Shown one piece after another: positions 35,990 through 63,981 of a DNA stretch of 64,000 nt. The notes below the pieces were generated by a model, which searched no databases, was not told where the DNA came from, and worked only from the letters and a program-made list of their open reading frames with translations. This DNA is from an uncultured Nitrososphaeraceae archaeon. Its GTDB lineage: Archaea > Thermoproteota > Nitrososphaeria > Nitrososphaerales > Nitrososphaeraceae. The number at the start of each line of letters is the position of its first letter. Positions within the stretch are counted from its first letter, which is position 1. Both the position numbers and the translations under genes were made by a program. Location: positions 106,559 through 170,558 of the forward strand of contig CAVSMN010000010.1 in the NCBI GenBank assembly GCA_963729045.1, given 5' to 3'.

Positions 35990-36140
35990 TCATTTTGTCA
36001 TGCGAGAATTTATGCTGAAAATAGATAATAATAGCACTAACTGCTGTATAGGTTTTACCACTCCCAGTCGCCTTTTGAATCAAGGCGCTGGATCTATTGT
36101 CTGATAATGACTGTTCTAAATTCTTTATTGCCTCCATTTG
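35990..36140 (-). pseudogene. type I restriction endonuclease R / DEAD helicase fragment
   Basis: QMEAIKNLEQSL...ALIQKATGSGKTYTA (Q-motif plus Walker A). Confidence 0.65.
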
Positions 36141-36269
36141 TCTTAAATTTAGAGCGATGCATTTTGAAACCAACCTAGATAAGTAGGTTCAATTTTAGAT
36201 TTGAAAGTAAGATATTACTTGACTATTCCGCTCTTTAGATTGTCCTTGGAAAATATGAGAGTCAGAATA

Positions 36270-36740
36270 CTTTTCTCCAAAACCAGATTGTGCACCTACA
36301 TTATTACCAGAGTTTTCTTGAACCTAGATATTGATGTTGTTGCCTGAATCAATTATTCCTTCAAAATTAGAACCCACGGTTATGGTGACGCTATCGGGTT
36401 TACTTACCAAACCCTGCTTGTTTGTCACAACCAGTTCAAAATGCAAATGTATGTTGGAATATGGTTCGGGGTGCTGTGAAGATTCAATTTACTGCTGTTG
36501 AGTTACTCAGAGTGACTCCAAGTCCGTTTGATCGAGTCCACTATTAAGTCAGTGTTTCATTCCTTGGGTCAGTACCACCATGGCCTTCTAAATGCACTGT
36601 CACACCAGAGTCTACAGTTTGGTCAAGTCCGTCATCTGCAATCGGCACTATTGACCCAATTACAGAGACAGGGTTTGAATTTGTGCTTGCTGCATACATG
36701 TTACCATTATCCTAATTGTAGGCTGTTACCTGTGGAGACC
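36270..36740 (-). pseudogene. PKD/REJ-like surface protein remnant
   Basis: PIADDGLDQTVDSGVTVHL, FELVVTNKQGLVSKPDSVTITV with stops and frameshifts. Confidence 0.65.
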
Positions 36741-36802
36741 CTCAAACTGGGTATGGTTCATAATACCTCATTAGTATCTGAATCTAGGTTCTTTTACAAA
36801 CA

Positions 36803-37519
36803 TTATTTTGGTGGAAGTTTTTCCTCTTCCTGCTCCTCTTCAGTATGAAGCAATTTGTACACTCCTGCTGCTATTAGTCCACCAGCAATTGGTGCTACCC
36901 AATAAATCCACTGATAAGCAAAATCCCAAGTTATTAAGGCAGGGCCAAAGGAGCGAGCTGGATTTAATGACCCTCCAGTAATTGAGCCTCCGAATATAAC
37001 ATTGAATCCGAGAGTAAAACCTATGGCTATTCCAGCCAATGGAACTATCTTAAAGTTTTTTGAAGTGGTTGTGGCCAATACAACATATACCAATGTAAAT
37101 GTCATTACTGTTTCTAAGATAAGGGCTCTTACAATGTTACCGTCGGAAGGCAATGTTACACTAGCTGACATTTCAGAGCCAAAAATTGAATAGACAACTG
37201 CAGCTGCAAGCACGGCACCAATAATCTGAGCAATGATGTACACAACTGCTTCCTTTCTACCAATTTTCTTGGCCACTAAGAGACCTATTGTAACTGCAGG
37301 ATTGACCTGTGCACCAGAACGATATCCTATGGCATATACAATAGCTGTTAAGACTAGAGCATGAACCAAACCTATTCCAATTACTCCTAATTGTCCACTA
37401 TCAGAATAGACGGTTGCAGCAGAAGCAATTGCATATACTAAAATAAAAGTACCTACAATCTCTACCAAAAATTTGTTTCTTAAAGACGGTCGGAAAATCT
37501 TTTGAACGTCTTTATCCAT
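36803..37519 (-). CDS. aquaporin (MIP family)
   Basis: SGAQVNPAVT and GGSLNPARSFGP (two NPA motifs), six TMs. Confidence 0.97.
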   Translation of the reverse strand: MDKDVQKIFRPSLRNKFLVEIVGTFILVYAIASAATVYSDSGQLGVIGIGLVHALVLTAIVYAIGYRSGAQVNPAVTIGLLVAKKIGRKEAVVYIIAQIIGAVLAAAVVYSIFGSEMSASVTLPSDGNIVRALILETVMTFTLVYVVLATTTSKNFKIVPLAGIAIGFTLGFNVIFGGSITGGSLNPARSFGPALITWDFAYQWIYWVAPIAGGLIAAGVYKLLHTEEEQEEEKLPPK

Positions 37520-37648
37520 GTTCCTTACTAATAGTCGCAAATATATTTAAATGATGGTATAATCCCAATTTTAGAGAATCAATGTCTTTTGAGTTGAGAT
37601 AATTGATAAAATTAGAACATCATATTCTTATGATTATTATTCATGTGA

Positions 37649-37689
37649 TCAAATCCCGCTTGAAAAGTGCAAAGTGCGGGATTTGAACC
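37649..37689 (-). repeat. tRNA-3'-derived repeat, hairpin form
   Basis: tcaaatcccgc-ttgaaaagtgcaaagt-gcgggatttgaacc. Confidence 0.92.
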
Positions 37690-45903: not shown

Positions 45904-46390
45904 TTATATCAAATACTTTTTTGATAACCGGTGCCTATTCCTACTTAATGTATTTGGTTGCAATTGATTGTTATTTTGAAGTTTCAGATCTTGTGAAGAT
46001 TCGGTGCTTGTCCCCTGAGAGTCAGTCGTTGTTGTTTGAGTAGGGACGGGACATCCCTCTGGTATATCATCAGATTGATCCTCCAGAACAGGACATAATC
46101 CGGGACAACCATTTTCATCAATAAAACTAGTCCCTTCAATTCGTTTCATTTGAACAAGCATTGTTTTGCTCGGATTGGGTATCAGATGATTGATCATTAT
46201 TATCAGTCAACTCTTCGTCAGTATTACTATCTTGTGATTGATCCTCCTTGGATATATCATCACTGTTGTTTGAAGTGGTTGCAAAAACCGATGAAAAAGT
46301 CATGAATTGAGAAGGGATTACTAAAGTTGGTTTAAGAAAAATAAGAGTCGTACAGATAAGAACAGAAAAATGCTGGGTTTTAAGACACAA
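45904..46390 (-). pseudogene. secreted acidic protein with C...GCP..CP motif, frameshifted near 46140
   Basis: Two overlapping ORFs join to give NNACSNET(F)EGTSFIDENGCPGLCP; partial duplicate at 59290-59478. Confidence 0.65.
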
Positions 46391-48416: not shown

Positions 48417-48660
48417 CGCTTTCTCGACGCCATAAAGAATCTCTGAGCTTTTATCCTTGGTTTGAGGGAAGGAAGGAATACCCGTAATGTTTCATCTAAA
48501 TATCATGTTTAAAATATAAAAATATGCCGCTGCAAACACTTTAGTACGAAACTGTCATAGTTCATTAATTCTCCTTTTTTCAAGTAACTTTTAATTAAAG
48601 AAGTTGCTTTGAGACATTTAGGCATAAATTTTTAATAAAATGGGCTTTTAATACAATATA

Positions 48661-49642
48661 GTGGATGATTTAACATTTAGACAATTGATGGAATCAAAAT
48701 ATTATCATCCAGAGGTTACAGATGTCATTTTTGATTCCGATAAAATGTTAGAAATGGGCATAGTTGCTATTAATAGTACTGAAAGAGGATTTGTTATAGT
48801 ATGGGATAAAATAATGCTTGATTCCTTGTGGAAGTTTTATAAAGTTGGTATACTCCTTGCTGAAAAACATGCCAAAGAAAGGGGTATCAAATTTAGACTA
48901 ATTGTTGAAATTACGAAAGAAAACATGGAGTCTGTTAAATCATTCAAGTATTATGAAATAAAACATATTGATAATATAAGAAGTAACTTTGCTGTATTGG
49001 ATAACAGGGCCTATATGGTGCAAATATTTCATAAGGAAAATGAGCCTCCTGCTCAGGCGTTATTTAGTAATACTAAAGCCCTAGTAGATAGTCAACAAGC
49101 ACTATTTAACAGATTATGGGAAATTGCAACTCCAATAGCAAACAGATTAAAAGAGATAGAATATCGTGATAAATTAAACTACCAGAGGATTTTAACAAAT
49201 CATAAAGAAATTCATAATGAAATAGATTCTTTAACATAACAATGTGAAAAAGAATTACTAATATTTTCGTCATTCAAATTAATTTATACTGTACTTAACA
49301 AGAATAACTTTGTAAATAATTTTAACTCATTGCTAAGAAAAGGTATTACAATTAAGATTCTCACCGACGATATTGATGAACATTTAATGAGTCATATTGC
49401 TCAAATAAAGGACAACAAATAAAGATAATCCGATGCAGTTTGGGTATAGCAACAAGTTGGGAGAATTTAATGAATTTATAATGTTAAGCGATAATAAGTA
49501 TGTCTTGCAAATAAAATATGACCAACAAAATGAAATAGTTGCCTCATTTTCAAATGAAGAGCATAATGTAATGATTCAAGAGATTCTATTTGAAAAATAT
49601 TGGAATGAAGTCAAGAGTCTTACAGTCATTAGCAATAATTAG
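48661..49642 (+). pseudogene. disrupted paralog of 50507-51487 (kinase N-terminal / TrmB-PLD-like sensor domains)
   Basis: MDDLTFRQL start, internal TAA at 49237, C-terminus QEILFEKYWNEVKSL in ORF 49433-49642. Confidence 0.75.
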
Positions 49643-50433: not shown

Positions 50434-50506
50434 AGTTAAGAGTTGTCAAGGATAAGAGACATGTCTAGGACAACTTTTTAATAAAATGGAGTTTTGATAC
50501 AATACA

Positions 50507-51487
50507 GTGGATGATATAACATTTCGACAATTGAAAGAATCTGGCTATCATCATCCCGAGGTTACAGAAGTAATTTTTGATGCCAACCAAATGTTTGAAA
50601 TGTCATTGCACTCGGTCAGTATTAGTGAAAAAGGCTACGATATAGTATGGGACAAGGTTATGATAGATTTTCTGAGAAAATATTTCAAAGAGGGCCTGCA
50701 ACTCCTTGAAGATTTGGCCAATAAAAGAGGATTAAGAAGAAGATTAATTGCAGAGACTACCGCAGATAATATTGAATTTGTAAATTCACTAAGTTATTCT
50801 GAAATAAGACACCTTGATAATCTCAGAGGAAATTTTGGAATATTTGATGAAAGGGCATATATTGTCCAAATTTTTCACAAGGATACAGAAAAACCAAATC
50901 AAGCATTTTGGAGTAATTCCATTACACTTGTAAGAAAACAACAAGCCCTGTTCGACGATTTATGGAAAATGGCTATCCCATTGTCGGCCAGAAATAAAGA
51001 GTTAACGTATCATGTAAATCCAGAATATAGGAAAACTTTTACTGATTATGATCACATATATCAAGAGGTAAAATCAATCCTTGAACAAAGTAGAAGGGAA
51101 TTATTAATATTTGCATCTTTTAAAATTTTGAAGAGAATATTTCACAATAAGGATTGGATCAATACTATCGCTTCACTGCTAGCAAGAAGAGTGAATACTA
51201 GAATATTGACAGATGATATTGATGGAGATTCAGCAAGAAAAATTATGCGGATCCAAAATGAAGATAAGGACAAAAGAATCCATTTTGGATATAATGACAA
51301 ATTAGGAAATTTCAATGAACTGGTTATATTAAGTGATGAGAAGTATGCTTTGCAAATAAAGTATGACCATCAAAATAAACTAATAGCATCATTCACTAAT
51401 GAAGAATCCAGTGTTATGATTCAAGAGATATTATTTGAGAAATGCTGGAACGAAGTAAAGAGTCTCGAAGTTGTGAATAGCAATTAG
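50507..51487 (+). CDS. stand-alone tandem sensor-domain protein (resembles N-terminus of the neighbouring kinase)
   Basis: IRHLDNLRGNFGIFD, QQALFDDLWKMAIP; no H-box. Confidence 0.75.
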   Translation: MDDITFRQLKESGYHHPEVTEVIFDANQMFEMSLHSVSISEKGYDIVWDKVMIDFLRKYFKEGLQLLEDLANKRGLRRRLIAETTADNIEFVNSLSYSEIRHLDNLRGNFGIFDERAYIVQIFHKDTEKPNQAFWSNSITLVRKQQALFDDLWKMAIPLSARNKELTYHVNPEYRKTFTDYDHIYQEVKSILEQSRRELLIFASFKILKRIFHNKDWINTIASLLARRVNTRILTDDIDGDSARKIMRIQNEDKDKRIHFGYNDKLGNFNELVILSDEKYALQIKYDHQNKLIASFTNEESSVMIQEILFEKCWNEVKSLEVVNSN

Positions 51488-51851
51488 ATTAATTACTATG
51501 AGGATAAAAATTTCAACATTATATAAATGAAAAATAAAGTCGACTGGTCCAATAATATTGAATAAATTTAGAGTGGCTTTACAAATTCTTACTAATACTC
51601 AATCTAGTTTTTGCCTTTACTATCAGGAGAACAATCGCCGCTTTCTACGAGCCTTGTGATTTCTCGTTTTTATCGGCATTTTCTTCAGCATCTTTCAAGT
51701 TGTTTATCAATCTTTTGTCTGCCTTGGTGTCATTGCTTGTCCTTTTCCAAAACTTTCCTAATTTTCTAAATAGCACAGAGTCTTTCAACTAATTCTACAT
51801 GTATACTATAGATGAATTTGCTTATAAAGAAAATAACGTCATAAAAACAAG

Positions 51852-51914
51852 TGCGAGATGCAGGATTTGAACCCGCACTTCGCTCGTACCTTAACCAGGC
51901 TGGGCCAACCTCGC
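51852..51914 (-). pseudogene. tRNA pseudogene (Leu-like) lacking anticodon and variable arms
   Basis: GCGAGGT TG GCCC AGCCTGGTTAA GGT acgagcgaagt GCGGG TTCAAAT CCTGC ATCTCGC A: acceptor stem, D-arm and T-arm present; 63 nt. Confidence 0.8.
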
Positions 51915-51937
51915 CTGAAATAAAATTAACAATACGG

Positions 51938-51946
51938 TATTAATAA
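51938..51946 (-). promoter_or_regulatory. candidate archaeal TATA box of the tRNA remnant
   Basis: TTATTAATA about 24-32 nt upstream of the 5' G; AT-rich context lowers specificity. Confidence 0.35.
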
Positions 51947-51961
51947 CTTAATGCTGGGCTG

Positions 51962-52246
51962 TTATTTGCAACTATTCCATATTTTCCCCTTTCTAAAAGC
52001 AATTTTTCTAGCAGAGCTAATGTCACGAATCCCACCTCGGTTTTTTTCCGTACCTTGTCTTATGGAGGTTCCGTATTCGTCTACAATTTCAATAATTACC
52101 TCGTCTTTGAAATACGATTTTAGAATTCCAGCTATTTGATGAGATAGAGCCAAGCTTCCATCACCGATTCTAACTATTTTAGTTGGAGACTCTATTGATG
52201 ACAAAACAAAACTGATTTTTTCAACTGTAGAATTAACCGAAGACAA
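51962..52246 (-). pseudogene. C-terminal fragment of an RNase H/YqgF-like archaeal protein
   Basis: VRIGDG...EIVDEYGTS...RDISSARKIA; no obvious N-terminus. Confidence 0.45.
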
Positions 52247-52737
52247 AATTGTTCTATGCAGGTTTGATTATAAGAGATATAACAACAGAGGAAAAATTAT
52301 CAAGAACCAAAGTAAATACGATCAAATTAAGAATTAAAGAAAACTCTAAACCAATGTAAATTAGATTTTTGAAATACACTTGTATGGTTAGATTCTATTG
52401 ATACCAGGATTAGGCTCGCTTGTCTTTCCGCTCGAGGATTGAATGAAATAATTAAATAGTGAGACTTTGTTCATCCTTGAATTATATCCCTGCGGACCGA
52501 GCAAAGTTAGACTACGGCTAATAGACAGGTCGTGTATTCATTTTTTGAGATACTTGCAATGCAATAAGTTATCGAATATGTTTGACTTACAAAAACAATT
52601 ATTGTATAGATGCTGTACGATTTCAAAGTCTTTCAAATTCTCCACCATCCTAAAGTAATTGTTTCTCTTTGGGAATAATATACAATTTATTATTATATAA
52701 GATTCGTATATAAGAAAATTATCAAATAGATAATACA

Positions 52738-53112
52738 TTGATTTACCCCATCAATTGTTACCTTTCAATGACTAATAACAGTATTAGGAAAAAAATACTT
52801 TATCAAATACCTGTATTATTGATAATACTTGCGATATCCGTTCCAATGGCCACTGCTTCAGGTTTATCCAATGTCTTTTTTTCTTCTCCTAGTATGTCAG
52901 TAAATCAACTTGTATATGCAGAAGATGAGGTTTCCAGTGGTGGAGATCATTTAACTTCATCAACTACTACTGACCCAGTCTTAGGACACAGTCTAATAGG
53001 CTTAACAGTCACTAAAGAAAATGCTAATCCTTCTTTAGTTGAAGAGACTGAAGAACAAGATCTTGATTGTAGATACGTTTCAGAAAAGAATTTCAAAGTA
53101 TCAGAGGAATGA
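52738..53112 (+). CDS. host-type secreted hypothetical protein abutting the GC-rich island
   Basis: Signal-like segment, AT-rich; stop 4 bp before the NRPS ATG. Confidence 0.55.
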   Translation: MIYPINCYLSMTNNSIRKKILYQIPVLLIILAISVPMATASGLSNVFFSSPSMSVNQLVYAEDEVSSGGDHLTSSTTTDPVLGHSLIGLTVTKENANPSLVEETEEQDLDCRYVSEKNFKVSEE

Positions 53113-53116
53113 TGAC

Positions 53117-56100
53117 ATGCCGCAATTTGTTCCAAACCAATTGAATCCCGGCCACGACGGAGGAGAGAAGGTCGCCGAGTTGCGCCCGCTCGCACAAGGG
53201 CAGCCTGATCTGAACGGAGTTTGCGGCCTCAGCCGTCCTCAAAGTATAGTACGCGAGCATGCAAGCAATTCAATTCGCTGGGCTCCTGACGAGCGGCTCA
53301 ATCATCTTCTCGAGGAAGCCTGCGTCCGCTTCGCGACGAACGATGCCGTCATTGGAAGCGGCATCGTTCTGAGTTATCGCGATTTCGACCGCCGTGCCAA
53401 TCAGCTCGCGCGTCATCTGCTCGCACACGGAATCAAGTCCGGCGACCGCGTCGCAATGATGTTTGACAGATCACCAGAAGCATACGTGGCGATGCTTGCG
53501 GTAATGAAAGTCAATGCGGCCTATGTGCCACTCGACGCTGCCTTTCCGATTGAACGCGTCCGCTTCATCCTCGGGGATGCCAACGTTTCCGCCATTCTGT
53601 CAATGTCGAGTTTCGCGGTGCGCCTCTCCGGCGCCCAGGTCAACAAGATATTTCTCGATTCGGAGAGGCAGGCGATCGGTGCACAGGCAGCCAATTCGTT
53701 GACTGGCGTTTCGCCGCCGACCGAGCCCCTCTCCTACATCATTTACACATCGGGCACAACCGGTAATCCGAAGGGTGTTTGTATCGGACACGCAAGTATT
53801 TGCAATTTCGTGCGCGTCGCCGCTGAGCTTTATGGCTATTGCGCCCGGCGATCGCGTCTATCAGGGCATGTCGATAGCGTTCGATTTCTCCGTCGAGGAG
53901 ATCTGGGTGCCGCTGATGTGCGGCGCGACGCTCGTGCCGGGCCCGACTGGCAGGACCCTGATGGGCGACGAGCTCGGAGACTTTCTGCGCAAACGCCGTG
54001 TGACCGTAATGGCTTGTGTTCCGACGCTGCTCTCTACTATAGAGCAGGACGTGCCGGACTTGCGGATCCTGTTGGTCGGCGGCGAGGCTTGCCCGCAAAG
54101 TCTCGTGGCCCAATGGTATCGCCCCGGCCGCCGCATTCTCAACACCTACGGCCCCACCGAGGCGACCGTCACAGCGGCAATGACCGAGCTGCGGCCGGAC
54201 AAGCCGGTCACGATCGGCGTACCGCTCCCGACCTATTCGATCGTCATCCTCGATCCTAACGAGGACAATACCGTTCCGATAGGCGAGATAGGCGAGATCG
54301 GTATCGCGGGCATCGGATTGGCGCTTGGTTACATAAATCGCGATGACCTGACTAAGAAGAAGTTCATCCGCGATTTCCTGCATATCAAGAACAATCCATC
54401 CGGCAAAATCTATCGCACCGGTGATGTTGGTCGAATCATCGAGAACGGCGAGATAGACTACCGCGGTCGGATCGACACGCAGGTCAAGATCCGCGGCTAT
54501 CGCATCGAGCTCAAAGAAATCGAAGCGGTGCTACTCGACCTGCCACAGGTCGCTCAAGCCGCCGTGACGACATTTGAGATTGAGGAGAGCGTCGTCGAAA
54601 TCGTCGCCTATTATGCTCTCAAGCGGGGTGTCGAGCTGCCGCATAGGGAGATCTGGCAGGCACTGCGCAGCAAGCTTCCCGTCTACATGGTGCCGGCCTT
54701 CTTCGAGCAGGTCGACACCATACCGATGACGTTGAGCAACAAGGTCGACTACAAGAGGCTGCCCAAGCCGCAGCCGAAGCGTTTTTCCGCTACGCAGGTG
54801 TATGTCCCGCCCAAAACCGACCGCGAGCGAATGGTGCACGACGCGCTCGCTGGCGTCCTTTGCATCGAGCATGTCTCGACCGAGCACCACTTCTTCAATG
54901 ACCTTGGTGCCAACTCACTGTTGATGGCACGCGTCTGTGCGGCAATCCGCAGGAAACCGGGCATGTCGAACTTGTCGATGCGCGATATCTATATGCATCC
55001 GACGATCGCCAGGCTGGCGCATCATCTCGATTCATCGATCGACGGATCTGTCGCAACGAAGCCGGAACCCTTCCATGTTCCGTCGACCTTGTCGTACGTC
55101 ACGTGCGGGGCCCTGCAGATTGGATTCACCGCGGCCTATCTGTTGTTCGGACTCTTTATCTTCGTGGCCGGCATTCAATGGGCGACCGCCATCGACAGCG
55201 TGGTGGAGATCTACGTGCGCAGCGTCGCGTTCGGCTCAGGATTGTTTGTTGCGCTGATCGCGCTTCCCGTCGCGGCGAAATGGGTGCTGATAGGTCGCTT
55301 CAAGGCGCAATCGATTCCGATCTGGAGCTTTGCGTATTTCCGCTTCTGGGTCGTCAAGACTCTGATGCGCACATCGCCTGTGGCTGCCTTCATTAGCACA
55401 CCACTCTACAACGCCTATCTGCGCCTGATGGGCGCCAGAATCGGCCGCAACGTGATGCTGAGGTGCCAGTTCACGCCGGTCTGTACCGACCTTGTGACGA
55501 TCGGTGACAACACCATCGTCAACAGTGAAACGAGCCTGCTCGGCTATCGTGCGCAGTCTAACTTCATTCATATGGGCCCGGTTACGATCGGCAGCAATGC
55601 GTTCGTCGGCGAAGGGAGCGTGCTCGACATCGATACTACGATGGGCAACAACACTCAGCTCGGTCATGCCTCGTCACTGCAGAGCGGCCAGCGGGTGCCG
55701 GACGACAAGCGCTACCATGGCTCTCCGGCGGTCGAGACGTCCTCGGACTATCGCCAGATCGAGTCCAAGAATGGTGCTGATCTCCGAGGCGCCATCTATG
55801 TGTCGCTTATCCTCGCGACAATGATCATGATTGCCGGGCCTGCCATGATGATCCTCATCTACCACGTCTGGGATCTATTTTGCCCGACTCCTCTAACCAC
55901 TCTGCATTGTACAACGTTCTTCTCCATGTCGACTCCCTTGCTTCTCGCCATTTCGGCGGCGCTGTTCTTCGGCGCGCTTGGCATCGGTCTGGCTGGTGTG
56001 TATGTCATCCCGCGCCTCTGTATGAGGGGGCTGCGGCCCGATGTAACCTACCAGAATTTCGGCTTCCACTACCTGCTGCAGAGCATCATCCGAGGCATCA

Positions 56101-57291
56101 GCAACTCGGGCTTCTTCAGCTCGCTTTTCGGCGACTCATCAGCCGTCGTATGGTACATGCGCTACGTCGGCTGGAACTTGAACACGGTCCATCAAACCGG
56201 CTCGAACATGGGAAGTGACCAGAAGCACGACAACCCGTTTCTCTGCAATATCGGCAGCGGCACGATGATTTCGGACGGGCTCAAGATGATGAACATGCAG
56301 ATGTCGCCGACGTCGTTCCGGCTTGCCGAGTCGAAGATAGGCGACAACAACTTTCTGGGCAACGGTATCTCCTACCCACCGAATGGTCGCACCGGATCCA
56401 ACGTCCTGTTCGGGACCAAGACATTGGTCCCGATCGACGGCCCGGTGCGCGAGAATGTCGGGCTACTTGGTTCGCCGGCCTTCGAGATTCCGCGCAACGT
56501 CTGCCGTGATCGCGACATATGTGCCTCGTTCGACGAGCAGACACGTCTCGCCCGTCTCCGCCGCAAGAACATGTACAATTTCGTCACAGCCTTGATCTTC
56601 ATCACAAGCCAGTGGGTGGTAGTGGCTGCCGCGTTAATGCTCACGCGAGTCGCAATTGCGAACATCGATCATTTCGGCACCTTCGTGTTCTTCGGAGCCA
56701 GCGTGGCGGATATTGGATTGAACATGGCCTTCCTCATCGTGCTCGAGCGCGCGATTATGAGATTCAAGCGACTCAAGCCGCGGCTCGCCTCGATCTACGA
56801 TCCGTATTTCTGGTGGCATGAAAGGCACTGGAAGTTAAATCGCTTTCCCAATCTTGACCATGTTCGCCGGCACCCCGTTTCGCGGAATACTGCTTCGCGC
56901 CATGGGCATGAAGGTCGGTGCCAAGCTGTTCGATTGCAGTTTGGGTATCCCGGAACGCTCGCTGATCGAGGTTGGCGACTACACCAATCTGAACGAGGGT
57001 TGTGTGTTGCAGGCACATTCGCTAGAGGAAGGCGTTTTCAAGTCGGACTATATCCGGCTCGGCAACAGGTGCTCGGTCGGCCCGGGGGCCTTAGTTCACT
57101 ACGGCGTCAGCACCGGAGACGACGTCGTGCTCGACGCCGATTCGTTCCTGATGAAGGGCGAGATCCTGGATTCTCATACGGAGTGGTGCGGAAATCCGGC
57201 CAAGTTGGTGCGCCGTCATGTAGCTCGGGCAGAGGTTTGCGTCCAGGACGTCGCCGACACCACCGCCCGAAATGACTTCGCCCCACAATGA
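53117..57291 (+). CDS. Pls/PosA-family single-module membrane NRPS (A-T-TM/terminal domains), two frameshifts (~53839, ~56845)
   Basis: YTSGTTGNPKG, FDFSV, NTYGPTE, YRTGD, GRIDTQVKIRGYRIE, T-domain LGANSL, TM helices and hexapeptide-repeat blocks (LRLMGARIG, LRAMGMKVG). Confidence 0.9.
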
Positions 57292-57742
57292 GCGACAAGA
57301 TCAGATGCTAAAGAAGATGACCACCGACAATTGGGAAGCGGTGGTCGAGATTGAGCTCCGTGCCGGCCAGGAAGACTTGATGGCGAGCAATTCTATTCGG
57401 TTGCCGAGGCGCAGTTCGATCCCGACACGCGCCCGCGCTGCTGTTTATGCCGAGAAGCACGTCGTCGGCTTTCTGATGTATGACGTACAGAAAAAGAAGG
57501 GCAAGGCGCAGAAAGCCTCGATCTATAACTTCATGATCGATTGGAAGCACCAAGACAAAGGCTATGGTCGCGCCGCGCTGAGCAAGGCTCTGCAGGAGAT
57601 CCGAGCGATCCCGGGGGTGAACAGGATATCGATTCGCTATATGCCAGAAAATCCGATTGCGAAGCCGTTCTATATCATCTTCAGATTCGTGGAGGTGGGT
57701 CGGGACCGCGATGGCGACGTGATCGCGGTTTTGAAACTATAA
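57288..57742 (+). CDS. GNAT N-acetyltransferase (BltD/polyamine acetyltransferase-like) with indels
   Basis: DNWEAVVEIEL, VGFLMY, FMIDWKHQDKGYGRAAL, YMPENPIAKPFY; ATGA overlap with NRPS stop. Confidence 0.8.
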
Positions 57743-58377
57743 TGTCAGACGGTACAGTCGATTACTCGCTGAAGCGAGCAATCGAATCCCTCTCCTTGCC
57801 TGGTCTGCTGATCGGCCATCGTGTGATTTCGCAAGGCGATGAGCTCGCGCTGCTCCACGAAGAGATGGCGTCGTTATCCTTCCCTACAATCGAGAGGCGC
57901 CGTGCCAGCGGCGCCGCACGACGTGTGGCGCGCGAACTGATGAACTCGATGGGCTTTTCCGGCCTTCCGATCCTCAGGAGCACATTTGGCGCCCCGATCT
58001 GGCCCGCCGGGGTCGTAGGCTCGATGGCACATGATGATCGAATTGCTGTTGCCGCTGTCGGGCTGCGGCGTGACGTGGAAGCGGTCGGCATCGATATAGA
58101 AACTGTCGCGCCGTTGCCGCCGGACATGCTCGAGCTGATCGCCACACCGCGGGAGCGGCATGCGATTGCTGATAACCCATTGGGGGTAAAAATTCTTTTC
58201 GTCATCAAGGAGGCAGTCTACAAGGCGGTCTATCCGCTCGATCATGAGTTTCTGGATTTTCACGATATCGAGGTCGACTTTGCCGGCCGGCTCGCGACGA
58301 CCCAAGCCGGACGCACGCTCGCGCTCCACTGGTGCGTTTTCTCTCACGTGCTGGTCGTGGCGACGATTCATATCTGA
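57742..58377 (+). CDS. 4'-phosphopantetheinyl transferase (EntD/Sfp-type)
   Basis: GAPIWPAGVVGSMAH, VGIDIE, FVIKEAVYKA; ATG overlaps GNAT TAA. Confidence 0.92.
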   Translation: MSDGTVDYSLKRAIESLSLPGLLIGHRVISQGDELALLHEEMASLSFPTIERRRASGAARRVARELMNSMGFSGLPILRSTFGAPIWPAGVVGSMAHDDRIAVAAVGLRRDVEAVGIDIETVAPLPPDMLELIATPRERHAIADNPLGVKILFVIKEAVYKAVYPLDHEFLDFHDIEVDFAGRLATTQAGRTLALHWCVFSHVLVVATIHI

Positions 58378-58599: not shown

Positions 58600-59275
58600 T
58601 TACAAATTGCATGTCTTCATTTAGCTTATTTTTACTTAGCGGTTCTTGATGTCTTGTAATCGATAACTATAAAATCATCTTTATCTTTTATTATTTCTTT
58701 ATACTCTATTTTGTTAACAACTTTTTTTATTTTATCAAAATCCTGTTCTAAGATCGCATCTAAAATCTCTTTAATGTTGATGTCTGTTGATTTTGTTTTA
58801 GCAAAATAAAGTATTTTCTCTATTGCACTTTGATATTTACCTCATTATTGATATCAGCGACTATCCTCTTTGTTAATTCGTCATGGGCATCCAATTTATC
58901 AACCCATGAATTTTCTATTTCAAAATCTTCATACACTATGCACGTCTTTTATTTGTAGTTCTTATCAGCTAAAAATCTAAATAGTTTTGAATTTGTTAAA
59001 TTATTTCTTTATTTTTTGACACAAGGTAACATTTTATCCGTTGCCCTTGTTATTGCAACTTACATTAACTTTCTTTCCTCCTGAATGTGTTGATCTTTCT
59101 CAGAAAGATTAGGTTGAATTCCTTTTAACAGTGTTAGGGTGCTAGGGACAATAAATTTATCTTTTATATATAAAGAAGGAAACTTTCTTTCAATTATATC
59201 TATTATAAACACCACAGGAAATTCCATTCCCTTTGAAGCGTGTACTGTCATAACTTTTATTGCATCCTCATCGCT
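58600..59275 (-). pseudogene. UvrD/AddA-like helicase-nuclease remnant
   Basis: VMTVHASKGMEFPVVFI, EERKLM*VAITRA, downstream FIVIDYKTS. Confidence 0.8.
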
Positions 59276-59289
59276 ATTTGTTTCCTGTG

Positions 59290-59478
59290 AGTAAGTTGTT
59301 GTTGTTTGAGTAGCAACGGGCATCCCTCTAGTATATCATTAGATTGATCCTCGAGAGTAAGACATGGTATGGGACAACCAATATCATCGATAAAACTAGC
59401 CCCTTCAAATGTTTCATTTGAACAAGGATTGTTTTGCTCGGATTGGGTATCAGACGATTGATCATTATTATCAGTCAC
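59290..59478 (-). repeat. ~190-bp diverged direct duplicate of 46020-46210
   Basis: TDNNDQSSDTQSEQNN.CSNET shared at DNA and protein level. Confidence 0.9.
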
Positions 59479-59497
59479 CTCCTATGATCTTGTCGAT

Positions 59498-59807: not shown

Positions 59808-59874
59808 TCGCGGGTTCAAATCCCGTACTTCGCACCTCTTCTTTTCTCTAAAGGATTTGAACCCGCTTGTATAC
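59808..59874 (+). repeat. tRNA-3'-derived ~65-bp TIR element, opposite orientation
   Basis: gcgggttcaaatcccgtacttcgcacc...ggatttgaacccgcttgtatac. Confidence 0.95.
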
Positions 59875-59929
59875 ACTGTGCATCTATCGATCAATTAGGT
59901 AATTAGATTCTTTATTATATCATGAATAA

Positions 59930-60418
59930 TTGTTTTTATACCAAATATTTGATAAAACCTTAATGAATTATGGAATATTTACCCTTAGATTTATAGTTGT
60001 TATTCTTGGTGGATTATTGTCCCTATTAGGAACTAGTATTATTGCGGATATGATGCCAAATGAAGCTTTTGCTCCCATTGCCTTCCGATTTGCCCCTCCT
60101 GTTATAACAGGCGAAAATGTCTATGTTACATGGTGGACCAACAATACAGCCAATAACAATGATGAAGTCTTATTTAGAGCATCTACGGATGGTGGTGTTA
60201 CTTTTGGAGATAAGATTAATTTAAGCAACTCTAATAATACTAATTCTACAAGAGCAGAAATAGCCTCAGATGCTGATAGTGTGGTGGTTACCTGGTGGGA
60301 ATCAAATCAAACCTCTGAAACCCCAGTCATGAGAGTTAGTGATGATAATGGAGAAACATTTGGACCTACTTTGATACTTGCTGTTAACGGAACTATTGGT
60401 GTTGCACCGGCAAATTAA
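59930..60418 (+). CDS. short secreted BNR/Asp-box (sialidase-like) repeat protein
   Basis: STDGGVTFG and SDDNGETFG Asp-boxes, signal peptide. Confidence 0.8.
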   Translation: MFLYQIFDKTLMNYGIFTLRFIVVILGGLLSLLGTSIIADMMPNEAFAPIAFRFAPPVITGENVYVTWWTNNTANNNDEVLFRASTDGGVTFGDKINLSNSNNTNSTRAEIASDADSVVVTWWESNQTSETPVMRVSDDNGETFGPTLILAVNGTIGVAPAN

Positions 60419-61447
60419 GATAATTCATTCTACATCAAAAACCTCTTTCTTTTTTTAACAAAAGAATATTGATTCCTGCCAATCATAGGTAATAAATAGA
60501 TAATATTTGTGTTAATACATTGGGACTTGAATTTTGGTCAAGATTTTAATTATGAACAAAATATTACCGACATAGTATTTATAGTTATTATCATATTTAT
60601 TACGGTGCTTGTTGTCTAAGTAGTAACAACTCAAATATTGTTGACTAATTATTTATTAATTTTGTTTATTATTAAATAACATTAATTTGATGGCATTAAC
60701 CTCTGGCGATACATCTGACTTCAAATATCTACTATTATGAAGGCAAATCAGTCTAATTATTTTTTCCATAACTATATCTAATCGAATCCATTGCCTTTTG
60801 CTATTTTATCAGTGGAATATCAACATGATCGGTAGATATTAGAATAAAATTTCAAATCTATTTTCTTTAATTCTATCCATTTATCTCAAGACATTTAGAT
60901 AGAAAATGGTCCTATTTTATATTTCATATATCATTATCTACCTGTAACTAGTAACAAGTAACTATACTCCTTTTTATCCTTTTGCATTTCAAATCCACCT
61001 GATATGGATAAAAAATATTGTTTATGTTATCTAAACTAACTCTTTATTTTGGTACAACAATAATTAGAGTCTCTTTTATAGTAAGGCTTCAAGTTCCACT
61101 CTCTTATTTTTTACCATATTATTGTTATTATATCATTTTTAAAATAACATTAGAATTACTTTCTAAATACTACTGAATTTTCTCTTATTAGCAATTATCT
61201 AATTATTAAACTGTAAAAGAATTTATGATCAGAAAGTTGATATGATTAAATTCTTGTTCTAAGACATTTACTAAAAAAAATAATGAAATTTCAGTCTGTT
61301 AATGAACACAAACTTGCTTGGTTCATAGAGTGCAGGAGAATCATCGGCAACATGAGGATCTCGGTGGACAATACTACGCTTACAGGTTTTCTCGAATGGA
61401 TTTATTTTAGTTCCCACTCGATGGTAGGCTGTAATAGGGGCTTTTCC

Positions 61448-61669
61448 GAATCGTTACCACGGCAACTATGTGAGAGGAGATGATTGAGCCTTTCGCCAGG
61501 TGACCAGCGTAGTACATTATTCCCATGGTTAAGTACTAAACTCTGAGGGGTGTCGAGGCGGCAAATATCTTTCATATTAAATTACTGTGGTGTATGCTTG
61601 AGCAACTAGGAGACATTCTCCTTTTCCGTTGTGTCAAGCATCCTATGCATGTGAACCAATTTACAACAT
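61448..61669 (-). pseudogene. collapsed second copy of the NRPS island (NRPS N-terminus fused to PPTase C-terminus)
   Basis: Hand translation ...ENVS*LLKHTPQ*FNMKDICRLDTPQSLVLNHGNNVLRWSPGERLNHLL|SHIVAVVTI versus island ...EKVAELRPLAQGQPDLNGVCGLSRPQSIVREHASNSIRWAPDERLNHLL and SHVLVVATI. Confidence 0.85.
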
Positions 61670-61779
61670 ATTTTAATTCTTCAAATAAATATACCATAGT
61701 CATAAACTCAAACCTCAATAGTTCCTCCAATCGTATTTTCATTAAAGGATATTATTTAAATACAGTGTAGAAAAGTTTC

Positions 61780-62170
61780 ACATTGGGAATAATTCTAAAT
61801 AAATCTCTAAAATACTCCTAGGCGTCTTTTTTAATCCTTCTACTTTGGTTATGTATGATTACGCTTGGATTACATACAATAAATAAAATTGTAATCCGTA
61901 TGCGCCAAGAATATTTCTATCATCTCTAATATTCCTATTGCAACTTATGGTTAGCATCTATCTAGGTTATCTATTGAAATTATTGAAATTATCAGTTTTT
62001 TCTTTGTTTTCTTCTTACCATTTTTACAATAGCAGATTACAAATTTCAACAAACTGAAAAGAAAGTTTCGTTTTAGGTAACGTTAATGATTCTTTCTTTT
62101 CGGCTTTGAAACTTTCATTCATCTTATCTAGAATACTATTTCCATAAGCTTATTTTTTCGTAATCCTGTT
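61780..62170 (-). pseudogene. KAP-family P-loop NTPase remnant
   Basis: KLIISIISIDNLDRC*P*VAIGILEMIEIFL (Walker B DxLDRCxP signature) with stops. Confidence 0.65.
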
Positions 62171-62336
62171 TTAAATTACTTAAAATTTATTTTTATTTGT
62201 AACACAATTGACATACTCAAATAATAATAATATATTCTAATAAAATAGGTAACAATAACAATATACTCAGAAGGCGGAGTTGGCCTTAGAAGAAGTACCT
62301 GGATTACAAGTAACACTGGATTTTTATCGTGAGCGA

Positions 62337-62390
62337 AGGGATCGCGGGTTCAAATCCCGCACTTTCCACTTTTATCGCGGGATTTGATCA
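62337..62390 (+). repeat. tRNA-3'-derived repeat, hairpin form, opposite orientation
   Basis: agggatcgcgggttcaaatcccgcactttccacttttatcgcgggatttgatca. Confidence 0.93.
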
Positions 62391-63897
62391 TATGAATAAT
62401 AACCATAAGAATATGATGTTCTACTTTTATCAATTATCTCAACTCAAAAAACATTAATTCTCTATAATTAGGATCACATCATCATTTAAATATATTTGCG
62501 ACTATTAATAAGGGAAAATGGATAAAGACGTTCAAAAGATTTTCCGACCGTCTTTGAGAAACAAATTTTTGGTAGAAATTGTAGGTACTTTTATTTTAGT
62601 ATATGCAATTGCTTCTGCTGCAACCGTCTATTCTGATAGTGGACAATTAGGAGTAATTGGAATAGGTTTGGTTCATGCTCTAGTCTTAACAGCTATTGTA
62701 TATGCCATAGGATATCGTTCTGGTGCGCAGGTCAATCCTGCAGTTACAATAGGTCTCTTGGTGGCCAAGAAAATTGGTAGAAAGGAAGCAGTTGTGTACA
62801 TTATTGCTCAGATTATTGGTGCCGTGCTTGCAGCTGCAGTTGTCTATTCAATTTTTGGCTCTGAAATGTCAGCTAGTGTAACATTGCCTTCCGACGGCAA
62901 CATTGTAAGAGCCCTTATCTTAGAAACCGTAATGACATTTACATTGGTATATGTTGTATTGGCCACAACTACCTCTAAGAACTTTAAGATAGTTCCATTG
63001 GCTGGAATAGCCATAGGTTTTACTCTCGGATTCAATGTTATATTCGGAGGCTCAATTACTGGAGGGTCATTAAATCCAGCTCGCTCCTTTGGCCCTGCCT
63101 TAATAACTTGGGATTTTGCTTATCAGTGGATTTATTGGGTAGCACCAATTGCTGGTGGACTAATAGCAGCAGGAGTGGTACAAATTGCTTCATACTGAAG
63201 AGGAAGAGGAAGAGGAAAAACTTCCACCAAAATAATGTTTGTACAAGAACTTGGATTCAGATATGAATGAGGTATTATACACCATACCTGTTTGACGGTC
63301 TCCACAGGTAACAGCCTACAATTAGGATAATGGTAATATGTATACAACAAGCACAAATTCAAACTCTGTCTTTGTAATTGGGTCAATAGTGCCGATTGCA
63401 GAAGACGGACTTGACCAAACTATAGACTCTGGTGTAACCGTGCATTTAGAAGGCGATGGTGGATAACCCCGGGAATTAAACACTGACTTAATAGTGGACT
63501 CGATAATCAGACTTGGAGTCACTCTGAGTAACTCAACAGCAGTAAATTCAATCTTCGCAGCACCCCGAACCATATTCCAACATACATTCGCATTTGAACT
63601 GGTCGTGACAAACAAGCAAGATTTGGTAAGTAAACCCTATAGCGTCACTATAACCGTGGGTTCTAATTTTGAAGGAATAATTGATTCAGGTAACAAATAT
63701 TTTATATCTATGTTCAAGAAAACTCTGGTAATAATGTAGGTGTACAATCTGGTAGTGAAAGTCATGGACGCTTACTCCCCAATCTTCCAAGGACAATCTA
63801 AAGAGCAGGATAGTCAAGTAATATCTTACTTTCAAATCTAAAATTGAACCTACTCATCTAGAGTGGTTTCAAAATGCATCGCTCTAAATTTAAGACA
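62347..63897 (+). repeat. ~1.55-kb module, copy B, bracketed by tRNA-derived repeats
   Basis: Inverted duplicate of 36139-37689. Confidence 0.95.
62518..63198 (+). CDS. aquaporin (MIP family), second copy with a +1 frameshift near the C-terminus
   Basis: Protein identical to 36803-37519 up to GGLIAAGV; ggagtggtac versus ggagtgtac. Confidence 0.93.
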   Translation: MDKDVQKIFRPSLRNKFLVEIVGTFILVYAIASAATVYSDSGQLGVIGIGLVHALVLTAIVYAIGYRSGAQVNPAVTIGLLVAKKIGRKEAVVYIIAQIIGAVLAAAVVYSIFGSEMSASVTLPSDGNIVRALILETVMTFTLVYVVLATTTSKNFKIVPLAGIAIGFTLGFNVIFGGSITGGSLNPARSFGPALITWDFAYQWIYWVAPIAGGLIAAGVVQIASY

Positions 63898-63981
63898 GAG
63901 GGATCGCGGGTTCTTATTCTCTAAGCAAAGGGATTTGAACTATCTAAACACGAAGCAGGTTCAAATCCCGCACTTCGCACC
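63897..63981 (+). repeat. composite tRNA-3'-derived repeat, opposite orientation
   Basis: agagggatcgcgggttc...gggatttgaact...gcaggttcaaatcccgcacttcgcacc. Confidence 0.92.

Follow-up and report, generated by a model that had tools for sequence, protein, structure and literature searches.

Xenologous gene displacement, with the pseudoparalogy attached to it, and tandem arrays of islands anchored at a tRNA gene are the general concepts to which the locus described here comes closest. At the level of DNA joining, passages of PMC12281630 report that joins in Haloferax occur at microhomologies longer than 2 nt and shorter than 50 nt, in some cases with non-homologous parts. Pls/PosA enzymes (TIGR02353) are described in passages of PMC10522769 as cationic homo-polyamino-acid synthetases whose homologs in a few archaea have an unknown substrate; the spread of these synthetases among archaea is not a topic of those passages. 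For the archaeal phylum concerned, PMC7603488 attributes, in the part dealing with gene gain, 77% of the gains to duplications and 17% to transfers within the phylum. Outside subscription journals we found no paper on the spread of the operon studied here among ammonia-oxidising archaea and nothing relevant on NRPS in these organisms.

The window, i.e. the whole analysed stretch of 64,000 nucleotides from an uncultured Nitrososphaeraceae archaeon (genome G000, C10:106559-170558), harbours a GC-rich NRPS operon of bacterial type, hereafter the island, and, about 3 kb from it and inverted relative to it, a short relic (Table 1). This relic is likely a Pls/PosA NRPS-GNAT-PPTase operon reduced to a stump without function. 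Likewise, we consider it likely that the stump belongs to an older operon lineage than the island, that both reached the genome by separate transfers, and that its ends were joined after a loss between microhomologies. The processes involved are of known kind, namely a microhomology deletion and a xenologous second copy. As in xenologous displacement, two operon lineages occur in one genome, one of them dead, and the island resembles a distant genus more closely than host genes do, its DNA being 88% identical to the copy in genome G091 of another genus while rpoB of G000 and G091 agrees at 74%. In contrast to that concept, the source of the xenolog would here be another archaeon, and the island may or may not be a working copy. 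As in the passages on MMEJ in archaea (PMC12281630), a large deletion is closed at a short near-repeat; those passages concern Haloferax, whereas the relic resides in an ammonia-oxidising archaeon. With respect to the Pls/PosA family, the intact orthologs of G091 and of the congeneric genome G014 show the expected architecture. Both NRPSs pass the TIGR02353 and TIGR01733 cut-offs (for G014, 656 bits against 423 and 396 against 317, together with a PP-binding match), comprise A, T and terminal domains and are followed by a PPTase gene, their product being a predicted one. The relic differs from them in that it retains only 34 NRPS codons and the PPTase end, and no domain.

Table 1. Features of the relic, the island and their surroundings (window coordinates).
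Feature	Position	Strand	Evidence or remark
tRNA-Gly relic with upstream DNA, head of left arm	51843..52257	-	92% to tRNA-Gly locus on contig C13
Native gene cut at 53103	52738..53112	+	island joined there at 6-nt microhomology
Island operon: Pls/PosA NRPS (from 53117), broken GNAT acetyltransferase, PPTase	53096..58377	+	family profiles, alignments
tRNA-Gly(CCC) 3'-end copy (att-like), left bracket of relic module	59813..59836	+	repeat search
Small BNR-like gene, convergent on relic	59930..60418	+	89% to G014 gene 3' of PPTase (synteny marker)
42% GC stretch inside the interval of the initial annotation	61290..61402	.	without significant match to operon flanks tested
57-aa chimeric ORF made by deletion	61402..61575	-	Pfam/NCBIfam scan
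Last PPTase codons and bases beyond	61403..61475	-	alignment to G014; tail without island match
Deletion junction, 7-nt microhomology	61474..61480	-	6/7 alike between two G014 parent sites
First 34 NRPS codons from derived start MKDI	61474..61575	-	alignment to G014
Former NRPS N-terminal codons, now 5' of start	61576..61687	-	TAG and TAA stops, both in intact G014 copy
AT-rich operon leader, 26% GC	61688..61817	-	common to intact copies G014, G010, G011, G177
tRNA-Gly(CCC) 3'-end copy, right bracket of relic module	62347..62370	+	repeat search

The relic extends from 61817 to 61403 on the minus strand. Its NRPS part, of the Pls/PosA family, comprises the leader plus the initial 34 codons and is joined out of frame to the end of a PPTase gene. 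The initial annotation had placed a second, collapsed copy of the NRPS operon at 61290..61669. The copy holds up against shuffled controls, whereas its borders have to be moved: homology starts further upstream, at 61817, and ends at about 61403, and the stretch from 61402 to 61290 matched nothing tested. In a local search, the island NRPS gene is matched at its 5' end by 61633-61474 (minus), with agreement at 108 of 160 nt (68%, E 4e-9, or 5e-6 against the whole 2.85-Mb genome), and throughout this genome the relic is the sole second DNA match to the island. The NRPS part reaches an ungapped score of 51, the maximum in 100 dinucleotide shuffles being 17. The PPTase part, 35 nt at 61482-61448 which match island positions 58335-58369, scores 15. 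This value was not attained in 300 shuffles when the entire island was taken, nor in 2000 when the comparison was confined to the final 100 nt. Inverted orientation and lower GC content, as originally described, are both observed (minus strand; 44% GC compared to 60% in the island counterpart). Both peptides quoted for an NRPS start running into a PPTase C-terminus are found in translation, although they are read in different frames, and the join is therefore an out-of-frame one. No Pfam or NCBIfam match is obtained for the resulting 57-aa ORF, and the relic encodes no catalytic domain. Within the leader, TTTAAATA at 61760-61753 is a candidate TATA-like element. A scan for sigma-70 promoters gave 0 sites, the model being unsuited to archaea. 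RadC remains in 61402-61290 were considered and dismissed (across 34 rows the pairwise z did not exceed 2.2, and a profile built from 12 regions downstream gave 0 nhmmer matches), as was an IS-like reading of the plus-strand ORF 61283-61483, which is without Pfam match.

A search of the relic against 41 genomes reveals a match at 86% in G014, which carries a single operon copy. Aligned to this copy, the relic is identical at 292 of 344 positions (85%) over 61817-61474 and at 56 of 78 (72%) over 61480-61403, the latter segment including a 3' tail which has no match in the island (z 8 for G014, 1.7 for the island). Some 175 nt of the relic are 87% identical to G014 and at most 66% identical to each of the other 40 rows. 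The intact G014 NRPS comprises 1359 aa at 47% GC and starts with MKDIHRLD, the relic ORF with MKDICRLD. Of the derived states in the first 102 coding bases, the relic and G014 have 21 in common; the private ones number two and three, and two are common with the island. The leader of the relic is common to G014, G010, G011 and G177 (z 8-28), while the island yields a z of about 0. The in-frame stops reported upstream, where the island has E and Q, are indeed present (TAG at 61608-61606 for GAG, TAA at 61584-61582 for CAG). They do not indicate decay of this copy, since both also stand in the intact gene of G014, which uses a later start codon. The G014-type lineage lost its first codons and adopted this later start while still intact. 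The G014 contig bearing the operon ends 88 nt past the PPTase gene and shares a 141-nt overlap with a second contig carrying the ortholog of the BNR-like gene (89%), which is likewise convergent; for the spacer between PPTase and the BNR-like gene no alignment between G000 and G014 was obtained. A recent duplication of the island can be firmly rejected as the nearest relative, the derived bases and the flanks of the relic are those of G014 rather than those of the island. Directly upstream of the G014 NRPS, at L020:7008-7862, there is a gene with a peptidoglycan-binding domain, in an archaeon.

The DNA missing from the relic amounts to about 5.0 kb according to the alignments (5,032 nt when counted on the island, 5,018 nt when counted on G014). 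The parent sites in G014 read TCTCCTC and TCTCATC, and the relic keeps a single copy at the join, so that the originally proposed deletion of about 5 kb at a short microhomology is corroborated. The loss likely occurred through a microhomology-mediated deletion, for which replication slippage would be an equal candidate to MMEJ as an identical junction is expected. The AT shift is older than the deletion since the intact G014 copy shows it as well. The deletion itself was probably late: compared to G014, four of the 34 NRPS codons are changed, one of them synonymously and three not, and there are 0 stops and 0 indels, which is a small sample. The 141-nt overlap of the two G014 contigs (C71 end, C119 end; L020 13841-13981) begins inside the 7-nt microhomology, which may be coincidental or may point to a deletion allele in the population concerned. 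Its offset fits neither deletion register exactly, and no third G014 contig holding the overlap was found.

The native gene into which the island is joined encodes a product of 486-588 aa in four of the five relatives fetched, among them G014, where it is uncut and has 556 aa. In G000 this repeat-rich gene, whose product is predicted to be secreted, breaks off near codon 122. With its stop located 4 nt upstream of the island start codon, the island may be read from the promoter of the host gene. The 5' junction of the island recurs in contigs of three runs from three studies with 0-1 differences; the contigs of runs X1 and X3 depart from the window sequence near 58662. The island displays net frameshifts at 53840 and at 56837-56842 as well as indels in 57391-57442, and its GNAT gene is broken, while some contigs of other runs are free of the island indels. 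We dropped these frameshifts as evidence for a pseudogene because rpoB (G000:C7:78348-81260) is likewise broken up by two frameshifts, which points to indel errors of the assembly.

The window contains two opposed arms of tRNA-Gly(CCC) 3'-end repeats, which span 15213-51860 and 59813-63981. The relic lies between co-oriented repeats and the island between the arms, and the inversion of one relative to the other follows the polarity of the arms. An intact tRNA-Gly with an array of its own is found on contig C13. An aquaporin module between tRNA-Gly repeats occurs three times, at 62347-63903, 36133-37689 and G000:C13:100845-102494 (94% and 87%), one of the copies being inverted. A sensor-like, uncharacterised gene is present twice (48611-49620 and 50456-51465, 67% identical), with more copies on C9 and C13. 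Between the arms, a C-terminal UvrD fragment is located at 59060-59323, and 59278-59481 repeats 46008-46213 at 87%. The setting resembles tandem tRNA-anchored arrays in that the relic module is bracketed by tRNA-Gly 3'-end copies and modules are copied within the genome. It differs in that the island is not part of any bracketed module and the operon loci of relatives are without repeats: the att-like repeat is absent from 10 archaeal operon loci and from five further loci, that of G014 included. Hence, the array may have taken up the relic block, either through descent or from a donor similar to G014.

Matches to the operon DNA are present in 17 of 238 genomes of the family (G000 included), in 7 of 18 genera and in 4 of the 33 other genomes of the genus. 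A metagenome scan added 62 loci, whose long matches with flanks show at least 79% identity in low-GC DNA and 70-76% in high-GC DNA. We calculated a tree from 30 chosen rows, rows covering fewer than 900 residues having been dropped (26 of 77). Therein, 22 rows form a clade with an SH-aLRT of 100, composed of the island, eight loci from archaeal genomes, 11 metagenome loci and two bacterially labelled proteins; the rows outside are of Hyphomicrobiales type. The N-terminus was checked for 30 of the 62 metagenome loci, one of which had a false anchor. Of the 29 rows with low-GC flanks, 21 share a short N-terminus with a GC edge at the ribosome-binding site and eight are trimmed further, this N-terminus being 15 nt shorter than that of the single high-GC row aligned, while other high-GC rows were judged by eye. 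Several copies also bear an antisense RadC fragment 3' of the PPTase gene; in L021, L024, L110, L113 and L131 it is a C-terminal fragment in various stages of decay. From the single clade and the shared entry marks it appears likely that one bacterial entry was followed by spread between archaea. The repeated acquisition suspected in the initial annotation is accordingly upheld as a likely one between archaea, but not as repeated bacterial uptake, against which the clade, the leaders and RadC speak. In most archaeal copies GNAT is deleted or broken (L023-L028, L110, L127, L149, L151, L020), and several are devoid of PPTase, though the NRPS frame is often intact. A plasmid search for the donor gave 66-70% at best (Shinella, Aureimonas, others), with no match extending over 80% of the island, and identified no donor. 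A contig scan seeded with the G014 protein returned mostly actinobacterial homologs at 38-47%, which are uninformative on the donor.

That the relic merely reflects a chance match or an assembly artefact is exceedingly improbable. Indels occur even in rpoB of this assembly, no junction-spanning reads were observed, and no listed contig piece from independent runs spans the junction at 61474. Yet the match passes the shuffle tests and corresponds at 85% to an intact ortholog with synteny, and run X5 shows a depth of 6-8 in both bins flanking the join with 99% pieces on each side. Moreover, stump and island have different bases at one site in three, and the former is thus no mis-assembled island. 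A more serious alternative is an ancient duplication in the Nitrosocosmicus ancestor, giving rise to co-resident paralogs of which G014 lost the island type while G000 deleted the other. Two NRPS copies per genome are also found in G041 and G108, and the passages of PMC7603488 report duplication to be the predominant way in which the phylum gained genes. Protein trees place the island and the G014 copy as sisters with a FastTree support of 0.97, a topology with which an ancient duplication would be compatible. Support for this pairing is weak, however: the fork is open in the 30-row tree, a further tree gives a bootstrap of 43, and a separating tree is not rejected (AU p 0.18 with 2000 replicates only). 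The distance at four-fold sites between the island and the G014 copy is 0.54, compared to 0.285 between the rpoB genes of G000 and G014, whereas that between the island and the G091 copy is 0.165, compared to 0.70 for rpoB; the island is thus nearer to the copy of another genus than rpoB permits. With G091 as outgroup, 28 changes are island-only and 208 G014-only, a seven-fold asymmetry which speaks against co-resident paralogs but is no proof of transfer, since the distance from a near-root copy differs at least two-fold between G010 (0.24) and G014 (0.54), both with the G014-type leader. A GC-decay clock (two-state model, one host gene) places the island at 0.17 (0.09-0.24), the G000/G014 split at 0.45 (0.33-0.61) and the old, G014-type lineage at 1.04 (0.87-1.29). 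By this estimate the island would be younger than the split, as it is in all bootstrap draws, and the relic lineage older. We regard an ancient duplication as highly doubtful and adhere to separate transfers of the two lineages. Of the two origins initially envisaged for the second copy, an earlier entry or a duplication, separate arrivals are favoured by the identity to G014, the derived bases and the clock, and a duplication from the island is disfavoured.

Overlapping with separate transfers is the possibility that the relic module was imported from a G014-like relative, perhaps even after the island, which we consider conceivable though not the favoured course. It would account for att-like brackets which are present here and absent in G014, in a genome whose array modules, such as that of the aquaporin, have been copied around. 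Synonymous change relative to G014 is limited (1 of 34 codons; 0.19 for the BNR-like gene against 0.285 for rpoB), but few sites are compared, and the identities of 85-89% for the relic and the BNR-like gene are within the range of other accessory genes of G000 and G014. In three runs containing the island 5' junction the relic block is hardly or not at all covered, while one run contains the block; this is a weak indication, gaps in contig cover being no proof of absence. An unlikely course is that all GC-rich copies, and with them the island, were derived one by one from a bacterial reservoir which already possessed the shared features. The four-fold GC of copies in archaeal context ranges from 0.45 to 0.86, near-ancestral GC persisting at 0.85, and near-root copies are found in hosts whose rpoB GC4 is 0.36. 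In addition, nested within the clade are two proteins, likewise short at the N-terminus, whose sources label them Nitrospira and Ca. Binatia; these two, however, stem from contigs of 5-7 kb which could be mis-binned. Against such a reservoir stand the GC edge at the ribosome-binding site of the low-GC copies and the AT-rich leaders common to them. Furthermore, the flanks of GC-rich copies are low in GC, the genes located there reaching 66% identity to genes of G000, and no locus of the tree with high-GC flanks falls inside the clade.

With separate arrivals as the preferred reading, the operon would have entered soil ammonia-oxidising archaea once, together with the RadC fragment and from a Hyphomicrobiales-like donor, as suggested by the shared marks and the tree. 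One lineage would have resided for long in Nitrosocosmicus-type genomes, where AT drift and a moved start codon are seen in G014. In G000, this old lineage would have been deleted, probably late, between microhomologies which are visible at the junction, by a presumed repair pathway. A fresher lineage from another archaeon, whose junction with the resident gene is observed, would have arrived after the G000/G014 split if the model timing is correct. The newcomer may have come before the loss, as in displacement, or after it. On a wider scale, we tentatively suggest that the operon, having entered once, might circulate among genera from a GC-rich, slow reservoir and re-invade lineages with worn copies. 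The window would then represent one such replacement, with the worn stump and the newcomer next to each other at a tRNA-Gly array, which would imply recurrent selection for an archaeal amino-acid polymer.

Although presumably inert itself, the relic dates and orients the history of the neighbouring island. A single archaeal genome appears to hold two lineages of one bacterial-derived operon, which gene counts would score as a duplication. Duplication is the main source of gene gain reported for the phylum (PMC7603488, in the passages concerned). Some host would have to keep the near-ancestral GC-rich copies. The intact archaeal copies in G014, G091, G041, G105 and G108 are candidates for the synthesis of a cationic amino-acid polymer.
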